Source of the DNA: a virus
Taxonomy: Duplodnaviria; Heunggongvirae; Uroviricota; Caudoviricetes
IMG/VR virus record: IMGVR_UViG_3300025000_000056
Length of the DNA: 51,153 nt
Direction: 5' to 3' (one strand)
Below the pieces are notes generated by a model that worked only from the letters and a program-made list of their open reading frames with translations, made no database searches and had not been told where the DNA came from. A program made the position numbers and the translations under genes. This document shows, piece by piece, positions 5,522 through 24,251 of the stretch (its first letter is position 1; every line of letters starts with the position of its first letter).

Positions 5522-5830
5522 ATGCTTAATCTGGTATTAGCAATGACTAATTTAATTGATCAATGTTATGATGCTGATCCTCTCCATTATGTCGTGACTT
5601 ATAAAAATGATAAGGTCGTAATTAATGATGGTTTATTGTTTAGCGATGCTGTCCTAAAGTTCTTAGAATGTAATCACTTAACTCTCTGTGATTACATTCA
5701 AGAGCTTAAGACTTTATCAAATCTAGAACAACAAGAAGCCCGCATTATGGATGATATATCTCCTGAGCTTTGGCATAATTATGTTGAAGTTCAAATGGAT
5801 CGATATCAACAAGACTTAGAAAGGAGATAA
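5522..5830 (+). CDS. Hypothetical protein
   Basis: RBS GGAGG; in operon. Confidence 0.6.
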   Translation: MLNLVLAMTNLIDQCYDADPLHYVVTYKNDKVVINDGLLFSDAVLKFLECNHLTLCDYIQELKTLSNLEQQEARIMDDISPELWHNYVEVQMDRYQQDLERR

Positions 5831-7691: not shown

Positions 7692-8162
7692 ATGACAGAA
7701 AGTATATCCGTAAGACAGCAGACCCAAGAACAAATCATTGAGTACATTCAGAGACATAGTTCCGATGGAAAATTAACAAGGTCTCTAATGACAATTGCTC
7801 AACAAATAGGGTATAGTAATGCAACGGTTCATAGAGCTATGAAAAAGCTTGAAGCTATTGGTATGATTAAGATCATACCAAGTGACAAGCCAACAGAGCC
7901 AAACACAATTGTTTATCTAGGCCCTGCTACAACTAAACCAAGTGAGGCTACAACGCAAGGAACAAAACTTGTTCGAGAGCTTCAGGAATTATCACAGGAA
8001 ATGTTTGGGTACTTCGAAAACTTATCTAAGAGAATGAAACAATATGAAACTGATCTTCAAACGTATTACGAATTACAAAGTCGATTAGTAGATGTTGTAA
8101 ATTTACCGGACGATAAGTATCAAGTAATGATTCTTATGAAATCAGATAAGGTACTAGAGTAG
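7692..8162 (+). CDS. Winged-helix transcriptional regulator with C-terminal coiled coil
   Basis: SLMTIAQQIGYSNATVHRAMKKLEAIGMIKI HTH-wing pattern. Confidence 0.8.
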   Translation: MTESISVRQQTQEQIIEYIQRHSSDGKLTRSLMTIAQQIGYSNATVHRAMKKLEAIGMIKIIPSDKPTEPNTIVYLGPATTKPSEATTQGTKLVRELQELSQEMFGYFENLSKRMKQYETDLQTYYELQSRLVDVVNLPDDKYQVMILMKSDKVLE

Positions 8163-14890: not shown

Positions 14891-15283
14891 ATGGCAGAGT
14901 TAGATTACCAGGGAAGTTATAATCGATTATTTCCAATGAAGATGGGTACCACATCGTTTCTCATGGTCTATATCTTGTGGATGTTATCCGGTCGAGAGAA
15001 CCTTTATGGTAAGCAGATCGTTGATGATATAACCACTAAGCTAGAATCAAATTGGAAACCTTCTCATGGTCTTGTCTATCCAATCCTTAGAGATCTCGAA
15101 AAATCTGGATGGGTTCACGGATTTTGGGATAATCAAGAGTCCGATAAGAAGACTCGTCGCTTCTATAGTATTTCTAAGGAAGGCCGTGAAGAACTTGAGA
15201 AACGTAAATTAGAATATCTACCAATGTTTGAAGCAAGTCTCGGTGTTCTAAACACGATCATTAAAGATGTTTACAACAGGTAA
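14891..15283 (+). CDS. PadR-family transcriptional regulator
   Basis: LYGKQIV, PSHGLVYPILRDLEKSGWV, RRFYSISKEGREEL. Confidence 0.92.
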   Translation: MAELDYQGSYNRLFPMKMGTTSFLMVYILWMLSGRENLYGKQIVDDITTKLESNWKPSHGLVYPILRDLEKSGWVHGFWDNQESDKKTRRFYSISKEGREELEKRKLEYLPMFEASLGVLNTIIKDVYNR

Positions 15284-15352: not shown

Positions 15353-15478
15353 ATGACGCCAACTATCACCTGCCCCAAATGTAATTCTACGAACGTTGAT
15401 GTCGTAGACAAACAACGATTCCTGGAGAAATGTGTTTGTAAGGACTGCCAGGAGAAATTCAATGTTTCCAAACGGTAG
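15353..15478 (+). CDS. 41-aa zinc-ribbon protein (not in the ORF track)
   Basis: AAGGAGG RBS; MTPTITCPKCNSTNV...CVCKDCQEKFNVSKR. Confidence 0.75.
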   Translation: MTPTITCPKCNSTNVDVVDKQRFLEKCVCKDCQEKFNVSKR

Positions 15479-15492
15479 GTCGGCAATCGACC

Positions 15493-15527
15493 AAAGCCCC
15501 GATGATTAAAGTCATCGGGGCTTTTTT
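15493..15527 (+). terminator. Intrinsic terminator
   Basis: AAAGCCCCGATGA/TCATCGGGGCTTT 13-bp stem plus T6. Confidence 0.9.
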
Positions 15528-15574: not shown

Positions 15575-15612
15575 CATACACTAACATAGGACACAATGTG
15601 ACAGCATATTAT
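15575..15612 (+). promoter_or_regulatory. sigmaE-like (mother-cell sporulation) promoter(s) for the ftsK operon
   Basis: aCATAgg (15584-90), 14 nt, CATATTAT (15605-12) matches sigmaE geometry; a second consensus -10 CATACACT at 15575-82 has a weak -35; lies just after a strong terminator. Confidence 0.6.
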
Positions 15613-15630: not shown

Positions 15631-16827
15631 ATGCAACAAAATCAATTCGTTGACAACGGCACAAGTCAAGAATTAAGTCAATCCCTACGTCGTTTGGTTT
15701 TACTCTGGAGAGGTCATGATATAGCATTAATTATTGAAGACGTAATTAAATTTAAGTACAACAAGACACCGATACCGCGAATCTTTAAGAAGTTTAAGTT
15801 AACTAAAACTGCTTGGGAATTCTTAATTAAACTACCAGCAGGCTACGCTTACAAAGATTTTAAAGCCATGGAAACATTATTCTCAGATGCCGTAGGGGAT
15901 GGTGCCGTTCAGATTAGCCGTCATGGTAAGGTGATTAAAATGTGTGTTTCAACTGAGAGACTTAAAGATTACTATCCATATAAGTTTGATCCAACTCTTT
16001 ATCCTAAGATGTATCTACCAATTCACTGTGGGTATACAGCGATTGGTGAAATTGTTAAGGACTTAAGTTCAATGGTCAATGTCTTGTGTGCCGGTCATCC
16101 GGGTTCCGGCAAATCAACCTGGATTCATTCGATTGCTATGAATTTAATTCACAACAACATGGTGAATCCTAAGGGTCTTGTGAATTTAGTCGTCATTGAT
16201 TTAAAACTTATGGAGTTTAAATATTTAGAGAAACATGCTTTGATCGTAACGCAAAAAGAAGACATCACGAATTTACTTCAATCGTGTAATCGTGAGATGG
16301 ATCGTAAATTAGCTATACTTTCTAAGGCCCGTTGTGTTAGGATTCAAGACTATATTAAAAAGGGAAATTCGATGCCCTTTACTGTAGTCATTGTCGATGA
16401 GCTAACAGAAATCTCTGATAATGAAGAAGCTCAGATCTTATTAAATCGTATTGCTCGCCTTGGCCGTGCGGCTGGCTGCCTGTTGGTATTCTCTACTCAG
16501 CGTCCCTCGGCTCAAACGTTTGCTAACTTCACAGAGACTCGTGCTCAGTTTCAAGCTAGTATGTGTTTTCATGTACGAGATGCTATGAATTCTATGATCG
16601 TTTTAGGTAATGAACTAGCAAGTCAGATTCCTAATAAGCCAGGTCGTGCAATATTTCAATATGATGATCAGCTAGAAACTCAGACCATGTGTCTGCCAAC
16701 TGATGATCCTGATAGAATGGAGGAGTTGCTTGATGCCATTAGCCCGCCCATCGTCCAAAACATACCCTTCTATACCAGTTTTAAATCAACCCGCACCGCA
16801 GAACTCCCAGTCCGTAAAAAGAAATAA
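15631..16827 (+). CDS. Soluble FtsK/SpoIIIE-family ATPase (coupling-protein-like)
   Basis: Walker A AGHPGSGKS, VIDLK, Walker B VIVDEL, RLGRAAG...STQRP, GRAIF; ATG 15631 follows GGAGGTG. Confidence 0.93.
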   Translation: MQQNQFVDNGTSQELSQSLRRLVLLWRGHDIALIIEDVIKFKYNKTPIPRIFKKFKLTKTAWEFLIKLPAGYAYKDFKAMETLFSDAVGDGAVQISRHGKVIKMCVSTERLKDYYPYKFDPTLYPKMYLPIHCGYTAIGEIVKDLSSMVNVLCAGHPGSGKSTWIHSIAMNLIHNNMVNPKGLVNLVVIDLKLMEFKYLEKHALIVTQKEDITNLLQSCNREMDRKLAILSKARCVRIQDYIKKGNSMPFTVVIVDELTEISDNEEAQILLNRIARLGRAAGCLLVFSTQRPSAQTFANFTETRAQFQASMCFHVRDAMNSMIVLGNELASQIPNKPGRAIFQYDDQLETQTMCLPTDDPDRMEELLDAISPPIVQNIPFYTSFKSTRTAELPVRKKK

Positions 16828-17521
16828 TCATATTCGATGTGTAAATAGGGATCGTGAAATCATGAAGTTTATTAATCAAGTCAAATACGCTAATACTGAA
16901 CAAATTAACTTAGTGAATTTTAAATCAAGTTCTATGAGGATGTGTCAAAGACGATTGCAGATCCTAAGTAAGTCAACGAAACGTCATCCAAATCCTCCGC
17001 TTAGGAGAGACCGGTATACAATCAATGAACCCTATTATTATTACAATGCGTCGAGTAAGAAATTAGATCAAATAGAACATATCTTAGGAGTTACCTGGAT
17101 TGTTACTTGGATGATTCATAAGCTCAGTGGCTGTGAGAAATTCTATAGCTTTGATCGTGAGGTTAAAGAGTATGAATCACAAGTTAGACTAAGACCGGAT
17201 GGTCTCATTGGGATTGAGAACCTCATGGAAAGGACGATTGATTTTACATTCATAGAATTTGATATCGAGGAGTCCGGTAATAAATTCTTGAAGGTTCCAA
17301 AGTATTGTAATCTTAAACTCTCTAAAGCCTATATGAAATCATGGTGGGTATCTAAAACAAAGTCGTTTCCTAGAATCTTAATCGTAACGACCGGTAATCC
17401 CAGAAAGATTAGAGATGCCATAGAGCGTGATAATTCAGAAGGTCTTGACTTTACTGTGGTGACACTCGATCAACTTAAGGAGGAATGTGGCTATGGGAGA
17501 AGCAGCCTACGTCATCTTTAA
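16733..17521 (+). CDS. Replication-relaxation (Replic_Relax-like) protein
   Basis: RDREIMKFI...EQI...CQRRLQIL wHTH, EHILGV, RPDGLI, FIEFDI, KVPKY; ATG 16733 follows GGAGGAG. Confidence 0.82.
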   Translation: MPLARPSSKTYPSIPVLNQPAPQNSQSVKRNNHIRCVNRDREIMKFINQVKYANTEQINLVNFKSSSMRMCQRRLQILSKSTKRHPNPPLRRDRYTINEPYYYYNASSKKLDQIEHILGVTWIVTWMIHKLSGCEKFYSFDREVKEYESQVRLRPDGLIGIENLMERTIDFTFIEFDIEESGNKFLKVPKYCNLKLSKAYMKSWWVSKTKSFPRILIVTTGNPRKIRDAIERDNSEGLDFTVVTLDQLKEECGYGRSSLRHL

Positions 17522-17726
17522 GCCAGGTGGTGAAGGATTTCCAATTATCGTTATTGTAATGCTTGCCTTTGTAGGATGGCTTGGTAAACAGATTGCTGGT
17601 TTTACTGAGAGTGGTAAGTCTGCACTCTTTGTTCAGACCCTTGTGACAATCATAGGAGTCGGTGTGGTTTTAAGAGCTGCTAAGGTTTTACTCGATGCTT
17701 TCTTTGCAACGGCTGGGTATAAATAA
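17493..17726 (+). CDS. Two-TM hairpin membrane protein, SpoIIIAC/AD-like
   Basis: Two hydrophobic helices separated by GK..A.FV.TL, as in SpoIIIAC; ATG 17493 is 9 nt after AAGGAGG. Confidence 0.55.
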   Translation: MGEAAYVIFKPGGEGFPIIVIVMLAFVGWLGKQIAGFTESGKSALFVQTLVTIIGVGVVLRAAKVLLDAFFATAGYK

Positions 17727-18308
17727 ATGACCCAGTGGATTGGTTTAGTCTTATTCATGATGGTTTTTACGTACGGCGCTTACGTTATACTTAAGGCTTT
17801 TGGTTTTAATGATCTTTCTAAGGGAGTTATAATTCTAACAATACTAATTATTGTTAAGAGTACAGTCGTAACTCTAACTCCTTATATTAAGGCCGCTCAA
17901 ACTAAGACAAATTCAATACAAAACTCATTAGATCGCGTTGCAAACTTCGGTCAAGGCAAATGGAATTCACCGATTAAAGGTAAGATCACACAAGAGTATG
18001 CTGGGAAGGATCATCATGGCCTTGACTTTGCGGCTCCCGCTGGAACTAAAGTCAAAGCCACACGAGAAGGTGACGTATCGAAAGTAGGATGGGATGATAT
18101 CTACGGCAATATGATTGTGATCGACCATGACCAGGGAATGCAATCAATCTACGGTCATTTATCCGGTATCGATATTAAAGTAGGATATCCCGTAGTCGCT
18201 GGCCAGACTATTGGTAGTTGTGGAACTACGGGGCATTCCACTGGGCCTCATTTACATTTTGAATTAAGACGTAACGGTCTGGCTGTTGATCCTATGGGGT
18301 ATTTGTAA
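17727..18308 (+). CDS. Membrane-anchored M23 (LytM) peptidase with a SpoIIIAC-like two-TM N-terminus
   Basis: HHGLD (HxxxD), YGHL, STGPHLHFE; N-terminal YVILKAFG...VIILTILIIV hairpin. Confidence 0.9.
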   Translation: MTQWIGLVLFMMVFTYGAYVILKAFGFNDLSKGVIILTILIIVKSTVVTLTPYIKAAQTKTNSIQNSLDRVANFGQGKWNSPIKGKITQEYAGKDHHGLDFAAPAGTKVKATREGDVSKVGWDDIYGNMIVIDHDQGMQSIYGHLSGIDIKVGYPVVAGQTIGSCGTTGHSTGPHLHFELRRNGLAVDPMGYL

Positions 18309-18337
18309 AGTAGCTAGGGATAATCCCTAGCTACTTT
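18307..18337. terminator. Bidirectional terminator between convergent genes
   Basis: AAAGTAGCTAGGGA-TAA-TCCCTAGCTACTTT 14-bp stem. Confidence 0.8.
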
Positions 18338-19975: not shown

Positions 19976-20539
19976 TCAGGTAAAGTCTGGCATTAGAAGG
20001 CCACCGGCCTGTAGTGCTTCAGCTATAAAAGCCTTAACAAAATCAACAACCACACCTAACTCTAGATCATTGTTAATCAGTAAATCACAATTGGTGAGAT
20101 TAGCCACGTCTTTATTATAGGTTCTGAAATGTTTGTAATAGTTAAACTCATCTGAACCATAGCGTTCTTTAAGACGACGCTTAATCTCTTCTTCATTACA
20201 TTTGACCCCAATGATAATGACATTATCAACGTGCCGCGTATAAGCATCCGATCCTTTACGGTTTAAAGCAATACAACAATCGACATTACTAGAGTTCAGC
20301 AATTCAAGTTGAACTTTTGTCATTCCATAGTAGTCACCTTGAATAATTTCATACGTAGCCCAGCCCTGTTCGGCGTCTAAGGCTTTAAATTCTTCGAGTG
20401 ATATAAAATGATAGTCAACACCATTGGTCTCATCAACGCGCTTCTCACGCGTTGTATACGTTATAAGAATCGGAAGACCACAGGCTTTAGTCAACGTTGT
20501 TTTGCCAGCACACGACGGGCCCTGAAAGATAACTAACAT
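19976..20539 (-). CDS. gmk: Guanylate kinase-like nucleoside monophosphate kinase
   Basis: GPSCAGKTT, TYTTREKR..E.NGVDYHFIS, YYGMT; start 20539 in a TAATG overlap. Confidence 0.88.
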   Translation of the reverse strand: MLVIFQGPSCAGKTTLTKACGLPILITYTTREKRVDETNGVDYHFISLEEFKALDAEQGWATYEIIQGDYYGMTKVQLELLNSSNVDCCIALNRKGSDAYTRHVDNVIIIGVKCNEEEIKRRLKERYGSDEFNYYKHFRTYNKDVANLTNCDLLINNDLELGVVVDFVKAFIAEALQAGGLLMPDFT

Positions 20540-20898
20540 TAATCGCATCCCCCTCCACAATCACAGCTTCCAGAATCAAAACCGCCAAAGTCACAGCTAT
20601 TACCGTGATCATGATGGTGATGTCCACCATCATAAGCACTAAACACACCCATATACGGAAGTACATAGTCATCGTTATTTCTATAAGAACTAGACTTTGG
20701 TGCAGGTGTCGATATTTTAACAGAGTGTATAGACTTAGTTACCGTCGTTTTGGGTTGTACTGAACTAGGTCTTGTATTGGCTTGATAAAATTCGGGTTCC
20801 GTCTTAGCCTCATAAGGTTTGGCGGGCTTCATGAGATACATAAAACATAGAGTACCTAAGATGACCATAATTGTGACTGCGATTAAGACAAATACCAT
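20539..20898 (-). CDS. Membrane-anchored protein with His/Cys/Gly-rich tail
   Basis: AAAGGAGG before ATG 20898; N-terminal TM helix; tail GGHHHHDHGNSCDFGGFDSGSCDCGGGCD. Confidence 0.7.
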   Translation of the reverse strand: MVFVLIAVTIMVILGTLCFMYLMKPAKPYEAKTEPEFYQANTRPSSVQPKTTVTKSIHSVKISTPAPKSSSYRNNDDYVLPYMGVFSAYDGGHHHHDHGNSCDFGGFDSGSCDCGGGCD

Positions 20899-20911
20899 AG
20901 TTATCCCTCCT

Positions 20912-21781
20912 TTATCTATAAATCTGACCATCGTCCGGCATGGTAATTTGAACAACCTTAACGGTACCGTAGTTCTCGTTAGCATCAACAGCAGAGATGC
21001 TAATATAAAGGGTATCACCTGGAGGAAACTCCATCGTAATGAATTCCTGATTTTGAACTAGTCCTTCATGGAGTTTAGTCCATGGCCCATAAGAACTATA
21101 AGAATAGCTTAATATATAACCCGCTACATCCGTACTATCATCAAAAACTAAAGTATCAGAGAGCGCGTACCAGTAGTCTTTAATACCGGGTTGATAGTAC
21201 GTCGTCACATTGTCTGAGGTGATATGAAAGTCATCCGTACCAATCCAGTACTCTTCGACGCGATAACTACGATGCTGCATATAGGCATAGGCCTCATGCC
21301 AGCCAACCGTAGTTAAATTATTACTAGGATCTGTTCCATGATAGATAAATGCCGGAGGCTCCGGAGGACAGGAATCAGTAAAGGGGTCAGTAAAATAACC
21401 TAGATTAATACTTTCATCCATAAAGACTCCATCACGATAAACCTTATAATAACAGAGTGGATTAACATTCCATGTAATCGTGACAGACTCATGATCATAC
21501 GTCGACTGCAGTTGAAGGTTTGATGTATCAAAATCATTGGTTGGCAATGTGATGTTAGGTATCGTCGCCGCATAGGTATCTGGGATAATAATCTGATGAA
21601 GAATTGTATTACTTAGTTTCCCCGAATTATCACGAGACTTCATCTTGAGATTCCAGACACCAGGATGGAGTGTCCGTTGAATTTGTGTTGACTCCGTATA
21701 GCCGGAGTCACATTGGCTAAAATCCATTGATAACTGGATACCGCGGTGTTGTTCAATTAATAGAATCTGTGGCGTATACAT
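20912..21781 (-). CDS. FN3/Ig-like beta-sandwich protein, probably virion-associated
   Basis: VTITWNVNPLCYYKVYRDG, YWYALSD, LYISISAVDANENYG. Confidence 0.6.
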   Translation of the reverse strand: MYTPQILLIEQHRGIQLSMDFSQCDSGYTESTQIQRTLHPGVWNLKMKSRDNSGKLSNTILHQIIIPDTYAATIPNITLPTNDFDTSNLQLQSTYDHESVTITWNVNPLCYYKVYRDGVFMDESINLGYFTDPFTDSCPPEPPAFIYHGTDPSNNLTTVGWHEAYAYMQHRSYRVEEYWIGTDDFHITSDNVTTYYQPGIKDYWYALSDTLVFDDSTDVAGYILSYSYSSYGPWTKLHEGLVQNQEFITMEFPPGDTLYISISAVDANENYGTVKVVQITMPDDGQIYR

Positions 21782-22372: not shown

Positions 22373-22914
22373 TACATATCCTCCTCGTAAGTGTCGTCCA
22401 CGATGGTGATAGCCTTTAGTTTATCTAAGAGACCCTCTTCCTGGAGGCGTCTAATGAGATAGCCCTTGGTGATATCTTTATCATACTTAATCGTTAGTAA
22501 GTTGATCCCTTGTTCAACGCAGAGACGAGCTTTAAGTTTATCACAGGCCCGCAAGTATTCAAAGGCTTCTTTTGTCTTGTGCATATATGAATTATACGTG
22601 TAATGTTGCCTGCCATTAAATTCAAAGGCTAGGTTGAGTTTAGGGAAGAACATATCAAGTTGCATGGGTTGATTCTTTGGCGACATGAGCCAATTATAAT
22701 AACCACCAATAATGTATTCATCGTTAGGAAGTATCATAGCCATGACCTTATGCATCTCACGTTCACTCTTACTTTGCTGAGGTAAATTAGCCTTAGGTTG
22801 TTTGTAAACTCCCTTATAGGGATTACATTTCTTACAAAACTTTGGCTTCTTGGTTTTGTAATTTAACTTGGCACCGCATTTCGTACAACTTGCTGTCTTA
22901 TACATACGTACCAC
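22372..22914 (-). CDS. Zinc-ribbon plus Vsr/DUF559-like endonuclease
   Basis: CTKC...CKKC; LDMFFPKLNLAFEFNGRQHY. Confidence 0.8.
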   Translation of the reverse strand: MVRMYKTASCTKCGAKLNYKTKKPKFCKKCNPYKGVYKQPKANLPQQSKSEREMHKVMAMILPNDEYIIGGYYNWLMSPKNQPMQLDMFFPKLNLAFEFNGRQHYTYNSYMHKTKEAFEYLRACDKLKARLCVEQGINLLTIKYDKDITKGYLIRRLQEEGLLDKLKAITIVDDTYEEDM

Positions 22915-23707
22915 CCCTTAGTTTAGCAATAGTTGCCAAACGCCTTCTGTTAATAGTTGCCCTACAGGTTCCTAGGATGTTTGCTATCTGCTGATCTGTG
23001 AGTTCATCAATATAATAAAGCTTAATGATCTTTCGATCAAAGATACTTAATGTATGAAACGAATCCGAACAGGTAAGCCCGTTAACCCAGTTATCGTTGA
23101 TCTCATCCATGTCGTCTTCAATGCTTGAGGCCTCCATAGAAGCAATCCACTCATCTGAATGGTCCATATCAGATTCAATATACTGTGATAAATAATCCGC
23201 GTCTTCATCAGAATCAAAGCTTTGATTATTCTTTGCTTGAAAGACAACGGGGTCTGAGATAAGAGTCCGTAGCTGTCGGTGAAGTTGATAAGCAAATGTT
23301 TTATCTACGTAGTAATGAAATCGTGGTTTACCATCGGGTGATTTATAACGCTTAGCAAGCGTTAGTAAGGCAAGCGCTGTCTCTTGTATGATTTCTTCAT
23401 AAGAGTACTTGCTGAAGAATCCCTTAATTGAATTAGTGATCTTATAGATTTCATTGTGAGCAAATCGAGATCGTCTAAACCTATGAAGGTTAGCTCGTGT
23501 CAGAGGATTTGAAATATAAAGACTGATGAATTGCCGTTGTCCCCTGCGGGAAGCACTGATGGTTCCCTTTTTAATCAAGTTAACAAACTGAGCCATGTAT
23601 TCTTTGAATGCTATCAATAATTGTTCGGCCGCGCCTGATTTGTTTTCTTGATAAGCAAGGACTAAGGCTTCAGTTTCTTCATACGTAAACCGTTTAGTGT
23701 CTGTCAT
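22898..23707 (-). CDS. Phage sigma70-family RNA polymerase sigma factor
   Basis: Region-2-like EIIQETALALLTLAKRY...RFHYYV; region 4 IIKLYYIDELTDQQIANILGTCRATINRRR. Confidence 0.82.
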   Translation of the reverse strand: MTDTKRFTYEETEALVLAYQENKSGAAEQLLIAFKEYMAQFVNLIKKGTISASRRGQRQFISLYISNPLTRANLHRFRRSRFAHNEIYKITNSIKGFFSKYSYEEIIQETALALLTLAKRYKSPDGKPRFHYYVDKTFAYQLHRQLRTLISDPVVFQAKNNQSFDSDEDADYLSQYIESDMDHSDEWIASMEASSIEDDMDEINDNWVNGLTCSDSFHTLSIFDRKIIKLYYIDELTDQQIANILGTCRATINRRRLATIAKLRGGTYV

Positions 23708-23741: not shown

Positions 23742-24251
23742 TTAAGAAGCTCTACCTGCCTTTAGCAATTTGTGAGTATGATAAATTGCCAAGGCATCTG
23801 CCATATCATCCACCTTACCTTTACTAGTGAGTTGACTCAAAACAATCTCTTGATTTCCATAAAGATCTAAAACAGATTCCCGAACTTTATCTTTACTGGC
23901 ATTGCCTTTTCCGGTCACCGTCTTCTTAATCTCAGCAGGAGTATAAACAACGAAGGGTATATCAAGTAAACTGGTGGCAAGCATAATGACACCACGAGCT
24001 CTAGATAAGATCAAGGCTACCTGTTTATTGCCAGCTAAACCTGTATTAACAAATTGATCTTCTGATACTACCTCCGTGATCTCGTACCGAGAAACGATGC
24101 TTGCAAAGGCTGTGTAGATCTGACTGAGCCGTTTACTTTGTAGGTATTTAGGTATTGTCTTGATGACATTTAAATCAAGGACATGATCGTCATTATCAAA
24201 AATGACATAACCAGATGCTGCAAGGCTGGGATCAATTGCAAGCTTAGCCAC
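23742..24251 (-). CDS. ruvC: RuvC-like Holliday junction resolvase
   Basis: LAIDPSLAASGY, VVSEDQF, YTPAEIKKTVTGKGNASKD, DMADALAI. Confidence 0.9.
   Translation of the reverse strand: MAKLAIDPSLAASGYVIFDNDDHVLDLNVIKTIPKYLQSKRLSQIYTAFASIVSRYEITEVVSEDQFVNTGLAGNKQVALILSRARGVIMLATSLLDIPFVVYTPAEIKKTVTGKGNASKDKVRESVLDLYGNQEIVLSQLTSKGKVDDMADALAIYHTHKLLKAGRAS

Follow-up and report, generated by a model that had tools for sequence, protein, structure and literature searches.

A recurrent four-gene phage operon with a pair of SpoIIIAC-like membrane hairpins, one of them joined to an M23 endopeptidase domain

A stretch of 51,153 nucleotides (nt) from a virus of the class Caudoviricetes (IMG/VR record IMGVR_UViG_3300025000_000056), hereafter the window, was analyzed. 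Its + strand carries at 15631-18308 a self-contained, terminator-bounded operon of four genes. The same set is found again, as a unit, in phages and prophages of spore-forming Bacillota that resemble Desulfosporosinus. The four genes are tightly packed and encode, in this order, an FtsK/SpoIIIE-type ATPase, a Replic_Relax-like protein, a small two-helix membrane protein (hairpin 1) and a protein in which a second hairpin (hairpin 2) is followed by a helical stalk and an M23 domain. Judged from sequence at the level of family profiles, both hairpins are related remotely, and specifically, to the sporulation proteins SpoIIIAC and SpoIIIAD; by the curated Pfam criterion they are not members of that family. 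All coordinates are positions in the window, which belongs to a 117-kb virus record with an estimated completeness of 52 %. Two terminator-like hairpins enclose exactly the four genes (Table 1), which are called the cassette in the following text.

Similarity of both hairpins to SpoIIIAC and SpoIIIAD

Two protein families were collected, one consisting of 12 and later of 50 full-length hairpin-M23 proteins and the other of 70 small proteins. The reference set comprised 34 genuine spoIIIAC and spoIIIAD from Bacillota genomes, located with PF06686. When profiles were aligned with the 34-sequence SpoIIIAC profile using hhalign, the small family gave a probability of 85.7 % (P-value 5.5e-6), while the N-terminus of the M23 protein gave 87.7 % with 12 sequences (P-value 3.4e-6) and 80.9 % with 50 sequences (P-value 1.3e-5). 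The positive control, SpoIIIAC against SpoIIIAD, gave 92.3 % (P-value 5.4e-7), and the subfamily of small proteins with 68-73 amino acids (aa) reached 95.9 %. These profile-profile probabilities, 81-96 % in all, are nearly at the level of SpoIIIAC against SpoIIIAD. They supersede a shallow alignment with 4 Clostridium SpoIIIAC sequences, in which the N-terminus gave 2.9 %.

The controls remained low, with at most 3 % for reversed alignments and at most 2.3 % for the ATP-synthase c hairpin. Columns were also shuffled within regions, so that the helix-loop-helix layout and the regional composition were kept. In each case 0/150 shuffles reached the real score; the null had a mean of 12-13 and a maximum of 20-24, and the real scores were 31, 32 and 45. 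The SPP1 membrane proteins gp31.1 and gp31.2 showed no similarity to the hairpin families or to SpoIIIAC (about 0-2 bits).

Reciprocal searches with hidden Markov models (HMMs) were made against 9,756 open reading frames (ORFs) of all loci collected. Outside sporulation loci, the only significant matches of the SpoIIIAC HMM were small proteins of the cassette (29.1, 26.8 and 24.7 bits). Conversely, each of the two hairpin HMMs retrieved, after its own family, at least 15 SpoIIIAC sequences consecutively with no decoy between them. In a six-frame translation of a 3.7-Mb Clostridium genome, the best match of the small-family profile was the genome's own spoIIIAC (E-value 0.0015); the N-terminal hairpin profile did not find spoIIIAC in four Clostridium genomes. 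A protein-cluster search also gave as a lead a 68-aa Bacillota cluster with PF06686 in 14 % of its members (score 0.85).

PF06686 was the most recurrent sub-threshold Pfam match, always with the whole hairpin in register. It was found in 7 of 31 N-terminal hairpins (22.0, 20.4, 18.0, 16.3, 15.2, 14.5 and 14.4 bits), the top score belonging to the N-terminus of P0009 (E-value 1.8e-4), and in 2 of 15 small proteins (14.9 and 13.4 bits). For the small protein, DUF7442 ('phage membrane protein') was considered at an E-value of 0.019 and rejected, as it was matched by 1/6 members and was missing from the six-frame search.

The general features of the hairpins agree with those of SpoIIIAC and SpoIIIAD. 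In both groups two helices form a hairpin about 55-65 residues long, positive charge is concentrated in the short charged loop, which is of the G-K/R-x-D/E-x-A type, and the hairpin genes are paired in a manner comparable to spoIIIAC-spoIIIAD. Two transmembrane (TM) helices were found in 70/70 small proteins and in 11/12 N-termini of the M23 proteins. However, the cassette hairpins lie under the Pfam cut-off and are encoded by phages or prophages, they have FtsK-like and Replic_Relax-like genes as neighbours with no adjoining AA, AB or AE-AH genes, and hairpin 2 bears a stalk and an M23 domain, as neither SpoIIIAC nor SpoIIIAD does. The ATPase of the cassette is also of the FtsK type and not of the SpoIIIAA type.

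Several results speak against the relationship. PF06686 gave no match at E ≤ 1 with either of the two window proteins and none at E ≤ 10 in the six-frame translation of the record, and its gathering cut-off of 24 bits was reached by no window sequence and no relative (best 22.0 bits). When the 78-aa subfamily, to which the small protein of the window belongs, was aligned directly with SpoIIIAC, hhalign gave 3 %. Moreover, convergence is possible among short membrane proteins with two helices, a class for which the hhalign probabilities are uncalibrated. The 78-aa subfamily matched the 68-73-aa subfamily with 91.8 % and occupies the identical operon slot; at the profile level its link to SpoIIIAC is transitive only, via that subfamily.

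The initial annotation, made from the window's letters, had proposed the SpoIIIAC resemblance by eye and had made it depend on profile similarity to SpoIIIAC/AD. Such similarity was found by hhalign, in the reciprocal HMM searches and against the shuffles. The resemblance is thus borne out, in register, for the two hairpin families, and does not extend to a PF06686 match for the window's own two sequences. We consider it probable that the likeness of the hairpins to SpoIIIAC/AD reflects true homology.

The hairpin-stalk-M23 protein

The region 17493-18308 was initially described as one fusion of a SpoIIIAC-like hairpin with an M23 domain. It spans two abutting genes (TAA then ATG), of which the second alone encodes the fusion; the N-terminal string quoted at that time corresponds to residues 18-43 of the ORF 17727-18308. 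An identical copy of this 193-aa protein is present on a 229,618-bp contig.

PF01551 was matched with 116.5 bits (E-value 6.3e-34; gathering threshold 28.7 bits), and residues 95-189 of the protein correspond to positions 2-96 of the 96 positions of the model. The motifs HxxxD and HxH, which had been noticed before, are present as H96-x3-D100 and H175-x-H177, together with H144. Among 50 family members, D100, H144, H175 and H177 are each conserved in 50/50 and H96 in 45/50. On the basis of these residues, the M23 domain is catalytically complete, with an intact peptidoglycan endopeptidase site.

In an AlphaFold2 model built from a 12-row alignment (mean predicted local distance difference test score, pLDDT, 86), helices at residues 2-24 and 28-72 are separated by a three-residue turn and followed by a beta-rich M23 domain. 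The pLDDT was 84-91 for the hairpin and stalk helices and 89-94 for M23 residues 100-190. The density of lysine and arginine peaks in the hairpin loop, with 1.9 in 7.5 residues compared to 0.36 in the N-tail, and the 34 SpoIIIAC sequences behave alike. Most simply, by the positive-inside pattern and the model, the loop would be cytoplasmic, and the N-terminus would lie outside the membrane together with the stalk and the M23 domain. A cytoplasmic M23 domain had been named as an argument against the initial proposal; charge distribution and model place the domain on the N-terminal, non-loop side, most simply outside. A single prediction of a complex between residues 1-80 and the small protein, made without controls, returned no answer at a score of 0.00 and is not evidence either way.

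By sequence, the M23 domain matched PDB entry 2hsi (E-value 1e-21), and by fold (Foldseek) it matched 9gy1 (E-value 8.6e-13, TMt 0.80) and 4bh5 (TMt 0.86). The nearest solved structures are ordinary active M23/LytM proteins, namely 2hsi, StM23, EnvC, DipM, lysostaphin and LytM. SpoIIQ was found with an E-value of 5e-12 by sequence and at rank 37 by fold (TMt 0.66-0.72), and the NCBIfam SpoIIQ equivalog NF053738 gave 63.3 bits, below its cut-off of 250. Sequence and fold matches alike identify the domain as a generic active-type M23 domain, not a specifically SpoIIQ-like one.

All longer proteins matching the hairpin profile (49/49) are M23 fusions. When 1.84 billion representatives were searched exhaustively with the profile, 28 clusters only were retrieved, some of which are hairpin-plus-stalk proteins of about 100-120 aa without an M23 domain. 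Such M23-less forms, with 97-116 aa, are L212:10240-10533 (97 aa; Desulfosporosinus sp. OT, AGAF01000142.1), P0230, P0231, P0241 and P0252. The first of them occupies the gene slot where hairpin-M23 is usually found, and the hairpin sequence of P0252 is nearly the same as that of the window. The hairpin-stalk core is thus the conserved part, and the M23 module on it is optional.

Recurrence of the cassette, its carriers and hosts

The order FtsK - Replic_Relax - hairpin - hairpin-M23 recurs on many metagenomic contigs. It was observed in loci L002, L005, L007, L008 and L089 with identities of 37-53 %, and it was present again in L213, L214 and L243. In every recurrent copy the start and stop codons overlap or abut. 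The hairpin 1 family consists of 70 clusters, and its slot is always between the Replic_Relax and hairpin-M23 genes. Three kinds of carrier were observed: integrated prophages, ParM-carrying phage- or plasmid-like contigs, and the large phage of the window.

L243 lies in a 220-kb Desulfosporosinus chromosomal contig in which the prophage is flanked by ordinary bacterial genes. The operon is directly behind divergent cI/cro-like helix-turn-helix genes, and a separate holin and Amidase_3 lysin are present. This position behind cro-like genes in Desulfosporosinus prophages points to an early phage DNA-handling module and not to a sporulation operon. We also considered the M23 protein as the main endolysin and ruled this out, since the L243 prophage has its own holin and Amidase_3.

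Among the other carriers, tyrosine integrases were found in L007 and L213 and a serine recombinase in L008. L212 (Desulfosporosinus sp. OT) carries DUF3006 and metallo-beta-lactamase-fold genes, as are found beside the module in Geobacillus phage GBSV1. L005 and L214 contain a ParM-type gene, Thy1, guanylate kinase and a homing endonuclease. Both of these elements have kept a palindrome ahead of the FtsK-like gene, in the interval that separates the cassette from the ParM-type gene. It is of the form CGTTTGCATAGGCAAACG in L005 (about 5690-5720) and CCGTTTGTATAGGCAAACGG in L214 (about 7895-7925), in each case followed by AAACGTATATACACAC, and could be an operator or a centromere-like site.

The named sources are Desulfosporosinus sp. 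OT, Desulfosporosinus sp. PR and Desulfosporosinus metagenome-assembled genomes (MAGs), plus one MAG labelled Moranbacteria. Desulfosporosinus is an endospore former. The Moranbacteria-labelled source is L213 (ANAN16 groundwater scaffold_104), whose cassette proteins (P0137 and P0199) are labelled Candidatus Moranbacteria at NCBI. The contig carries integrase, P63C, GmrSD and SPbeta YomX-like genes, and its closest relatives are from Desulfosporosinus. Probably it stems from a phage or prophage and was misbinned into a genome of the candidate phyla radiation.

No match to the cassette was found by megablast among 50,697 phages, and the Replic_Relax-like protein had none among 72,556 plasmids. 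A search for related loci in the GTDB species genomes returned M23-domain matches only, and the full-length architecture was not found there.

The FtsK-Replic_Relax pair in cultured phages

When the FtsK-like protein was compared with cultured phages, 353 records were matched, of which 249 are Bacillus phages (23-32 % identity). Like the FtsK-Replic_Relax module of Bacillota phages, the cassette has a PF01580 ATPase gene and a replication-relaxation gene that are adjacent and overlapping. The pair is found in the cassette's order, overlapping and in an early or lysogeny-proximal region, in GBSV1 (gp42-43), Curly (gp65-66) and RBClin15 (CDS30-31). Unlike the cassette, GBSV1 and Curly have no recognisable SpoIIIAC-like hairpin or M23 gene downstream, and the pair is also without hairpins in SP-15. 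No recognisable relationship to the cassette hairpins was seen for GBSV1 gp44, Curly gp67/68 or SP-15_160. In the literature, the function of the pair is given as unknown or presumed to be replication or segregation.

Another explanation is that the pair is a replication or segregation module to which the two membrane proteins are a separate add-on, a generic membrane anchor without SpoIIIAC kinship. The add-on could have an accessory role in remodelling the wall, for lysis or for release, or could exclude superinfecting phage. Such an explanation agrees with the pair standing without hairpins in GBSV1, Curly and SP-15, with the PF06686 matches being sub-threshold throughout and missing for the window's own sequences, and with the frequency of M23 domains in phage lysins and tape measures. 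However, the SpoIIIAC similarity is reciprocal and specific against reversed, shuffled and unrelated-hairpin controls, the four genes stay linked with overlapping or abutting codons across 35-50 % divergence and three kinds of element, and the Desulfosporosinus prophage has a separate holin-endolysin pair. We regard a generic anchor as unlikely.

Comparison with sporulation and DNA-transfer systems

A sporulation-specific function was also weighed. According to this explanation, which the initial annotation had put forward as an 'A-Q-like fusion', the hairpin-M23 protein would seed or join a ring or channel at the sporulation septum; in its variants, it would mimic or plug into the host SpoIIIA-SpoIIQ, or bring phage DNA into the forespore together with the SpoIIIE-like motor. 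What makes the idea attractive is the host range, together with a triple resemblance to SpoIIIE, SpoIIIAC and SpoIIQ. The hosts of related cassettes are endospore formers, the cassette has an FtsK/SpoIIIE-type motor, its hairpins specifically resemble SpoIIIAC/AD, and SpoIIQ is likewise an M23-fold protein with an N-terminal membrane anchor and the domain facing outside the membrane. In addition, a gut-phage survey lists spoIIIE homologues among phage-borne sporulation genes, and its main text names no spoIIIA gene (PMC10294663).

On the other side, the cassette protein has two helices where SpoIIQ has one, and its M23 domain is no closer to SpoIIQ than to other M23 domains, being nearer to generic active ones (2hsi, StM23, lysostaphin and LytM). 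No match to SpoIIIAH, the SpoIIQ partner, or to SpoIIIAE was found in the 117-kb record, which is about half of the genome. There is no ring-building (RBM) protein in the cassette, and in the prophages the operon lies in an early lytic unit behind cro-like genes. A candidate sporulation promoter, the sigma-E/K-like -10 motif CATACACT at 15575, was rejected, as the motif occurs at chance frequency (8 window matches against 8.9 expected) and is not conserved, being missing upstream of the cassette in 9 related loci. Of the proposed A-Q-like fusion, what stands is an intact M23 domain, most simply outside the membrane, on a SpoIIIAC-like hairpin. If the hairpins are true SpoIIIAC/AD homologues, the operon, with its hairpin platform, M23 enzyme and translocating ATPase, might correspond to the 'feeding tube' base, either as a mobile version of it in miniature or as an ancestor-like relative. 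Phages of spore formers would use it to plug into SpoIIIA-SpoIIQ or to pass their DNA across the septum into the forespore. We consider this improbable, as we do a sporulation-specific device in general.

The cassette was also compared with Gram-positive DNA-transfer systems. PrgK (pCF10), CwlT (ICEBs1) and TcpG (pCW3) are VirB1-class hydrolases, that is, membrane-anchored peptidoglycan hydrolases encoded within the DNA-translocation cluster of a mobile element, and PrgK includes a LytM/M23 domain. The cassette might accordingly be a conjugation-like module, in which a TraB/TcpA-like motor, a relaxase-like protein, the membrane proteins and a VirB1-class hydrolase move DNA between cells. The membrane-anchored hydrolase recalls PrgK, CwlT and TcpG, some carriers with integrases or ParM look plasmid-like or like integrative elements, and plasmid TraB (E-value 1e-12) is among the best NCBIfam matches of the ATPase (EssC, FtsK and TraB, all far under the cut-off). 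In contrast to the VirB1-class systems, M23 is the sole hydrolase domain of the cassette, its anchor is a SpoIIIAC-like hairpin, and the readable carriers are phages and prophages with lysis genes. Neither a VirB4-type ATPase nor any other part of a type IV secretion system (T4SS) was found in the loci examined, where Pfam searches gave no gene of the VirB4, VirB6 or VirB8 class, and no T4SS small-protein family was among the Pfam matches of the hairpins. Because T4SS parts are absent and the Replic_Relax-like protein was unmatched among plasmids, we concluded that transfer between cells is very unlikely.

Proposed working of the operon

The explanation that we favour, with middling confidence, is a composite: the hairpin platform holds an active wall endopeptidase outside the membrane and, less certainly, docks a DNA motor inside. 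The abutting and overlapping genes of the operon suggest coupled translation, by which both hairpins would probably be produced at the same time. Like the products of the neighbouring genes spoIIIAC and spoIIIAD, the hairpins would assemble into a small platform in the membrane, with their loops in the cytoplasm. SpoIIIAD itself consists of two hairpins in tandem, and the presumed packing of its hairpins may serve as a model for hairpin 1 with hairpin 2. Such a platform would keep the M23 domain about 20 stalk residues beyond the outer face of the membrane, where it would cut peptidoglycan cross-links locally. With less certainty, the platform would dock the membrane-less FtsK-like motor and its DNA-bound partner on the inner face, and a phage DNA-handling machine would in this way be anchored at, or reach across, the envelope. 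The VirB1-class hydrolases serving Gram-positive DNA-transfer machines offer a parallel.

The composite has weak points. The contacts between the hairpins and between hairpin and ATPase are proposed only, and as the biochemical role of SpoIIIAC/AD itself is unknown, homology gives little mechanism. Since the FtsK-Replic_Relax pair occurs without hairpins and M23 in Bacillus and Geobacillus phages, it works alone there and may be a replication module. The hairpin-only forms (L212:10240-10533, P0252, P0230 and P0231) mean, moreover, that wall cutting is dispensable in some lineages.

Gene layout and neighbouring features

The coordinates of the cassette features are listed in Table 1. The FtsK-like ORF is open from GTG 15598. 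ATG 15631 is the likelier start because the consensus AGGAGGTG sits 6 nt upstream of it, and the ATPase is probably 398 aa long, not 409 aa. Its maximum 19-aa hydropathy is 1.32, with no hydrophobic helix, and the related FtsK-like ATPases also lack a membrane helix.

The Replic_Relax-like protein shares 40-43 % identity with FtsK neighbours in L007, L008 and L089 that bear PF13814, the PF13814 matches in these relatives being faint only. Its start is uncertain, because the first canonical start past the point where the homologues align is ATG 16862. The frame is open from 16703 and the homologues align from about residue 41 (about 16823), and from there until 16862 no ATG, GTG or TTG is found (ATT is at 16832). 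Either a non-canonical start (ATT 16832) may be used or the N-terminus may be shorter than that of the relatives. About 30 nt at the end of the Replic_Relax gene are shared with the hairpin 1 gene, and the homologues of hairpin 1 overlap in the same way.

Table 1 Features of the four-gene cassette (coordinates refer to the window)
Feature	Position	Strand	Remarks
Intrinsic-terminator-like hairpin	15493..15524	+	14-bp stem and T run; ends the upstream unit; left edge of the cassette
FtsK/SpoIIIE-type P-loop ATPase without membrane helix	15631..16827	+	PF01580 E-value 1.5e-17; phrog_1358 E-value 8e-48
Replic_Relax-like protein (putative origin-binding/nicking initiator)	16862..17521	+	phrog_9381 'replication initiation by nicking' E-value 1.4e-8
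Hairpin 1, small two-helix membrane protein	17493..17726	+	77 aa from ATG; 79 aa from GTG 17487
Hairpin-stalk-M23 protein, 193 aa	17727..18308	+	ATG immediately after the TAA of 17493-17726
Hairpin 2 (predicted)	17730..17876	+	TM helix 1 residues 2-24; tight turn 25-27; TM part of helix 2 residues 28-50
Helical stalk (predicted), residues 51-72	17877..17942	+	Extends TM helix 2 past the membrane; starts at a near-invariant 'LTP' (P52)
M23 (LytM-type) zinc endopeptidase domain, residues 86-189	17982..18293	+	PF01551
Zinc/catalytic residues (predicted)	18012, 18024, 18156, 18249, 18255		H96, D100, H144, H175 and H177, respectively
Terminator-like hairpin	18307..18337	+	14-bp stem; overlaps the M23 stop codon; right edge of the cassette

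Other genes of the window were noted in passing. Upstream of the left terminator, 14891-15283 (+) encodes a regulator of the PadR family with a further match to RTP, the replication terminator protein family (E-value 5.5e-7), and a 41-aa ORF with a four-cysteine zinc ribbon (15353-15478, +) is located just 5' of this terminator. On the - strand, 20539-21018 encodes a 159-aa protein without annotation, which could be a membrane protein that binds metal: it has one membrane helix and a C-terminal tail rich in His, Cys and Gly, in which a histidine run precedes a number of Cys-x-Cys and Gly-Gly motifs. At 22898-23707 (-) and 23742-24251 (-), a sigma factor of the sigma-70 family encoded by the phage (TIGR02937 E-value 6e-13) stands beside a RuvC-like gene. 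Its matches to region 4 of SigF/SigG/FliA are weak and partial, and it is not a close copy of a sporulation sigma factor.

Significance

SpoIIIAC and SpoIIIAD are conserved and essential for sporulation, and their function is unknown. Secretion-system look-alikes have been described for SpoIIIAA, AB, AE, AF, AG and AH and none for AC and AD (Doan et al. 2009, PMC2703783). In the papers searched on SpoIIIAC/SpoIIIAD and prophages, no phage or prophage homologue and no relatives outside the sporulation operon are reported. A membrane-anchored wall hydrolase in a phage FtsK-type module is known as such; the distinctive feature of the cassette is the SpoIIIAC-like hairpin pair. If the kinship were mere convergence, the cassette would encode an ordinary membrane-anchored phage wall hydrolase within a conserved operon. 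If it holds, the phage operon would give a much simpler system for the role of the hairpin, that is, for its binding partners, the docking of the ATPase and the positioning of the wall enzyme. For the FtsK-Replic_Relax modules, which are frequent in the phages of spore-forming hosts and so far unexplained, the cassette would also offer a concrete starting point.

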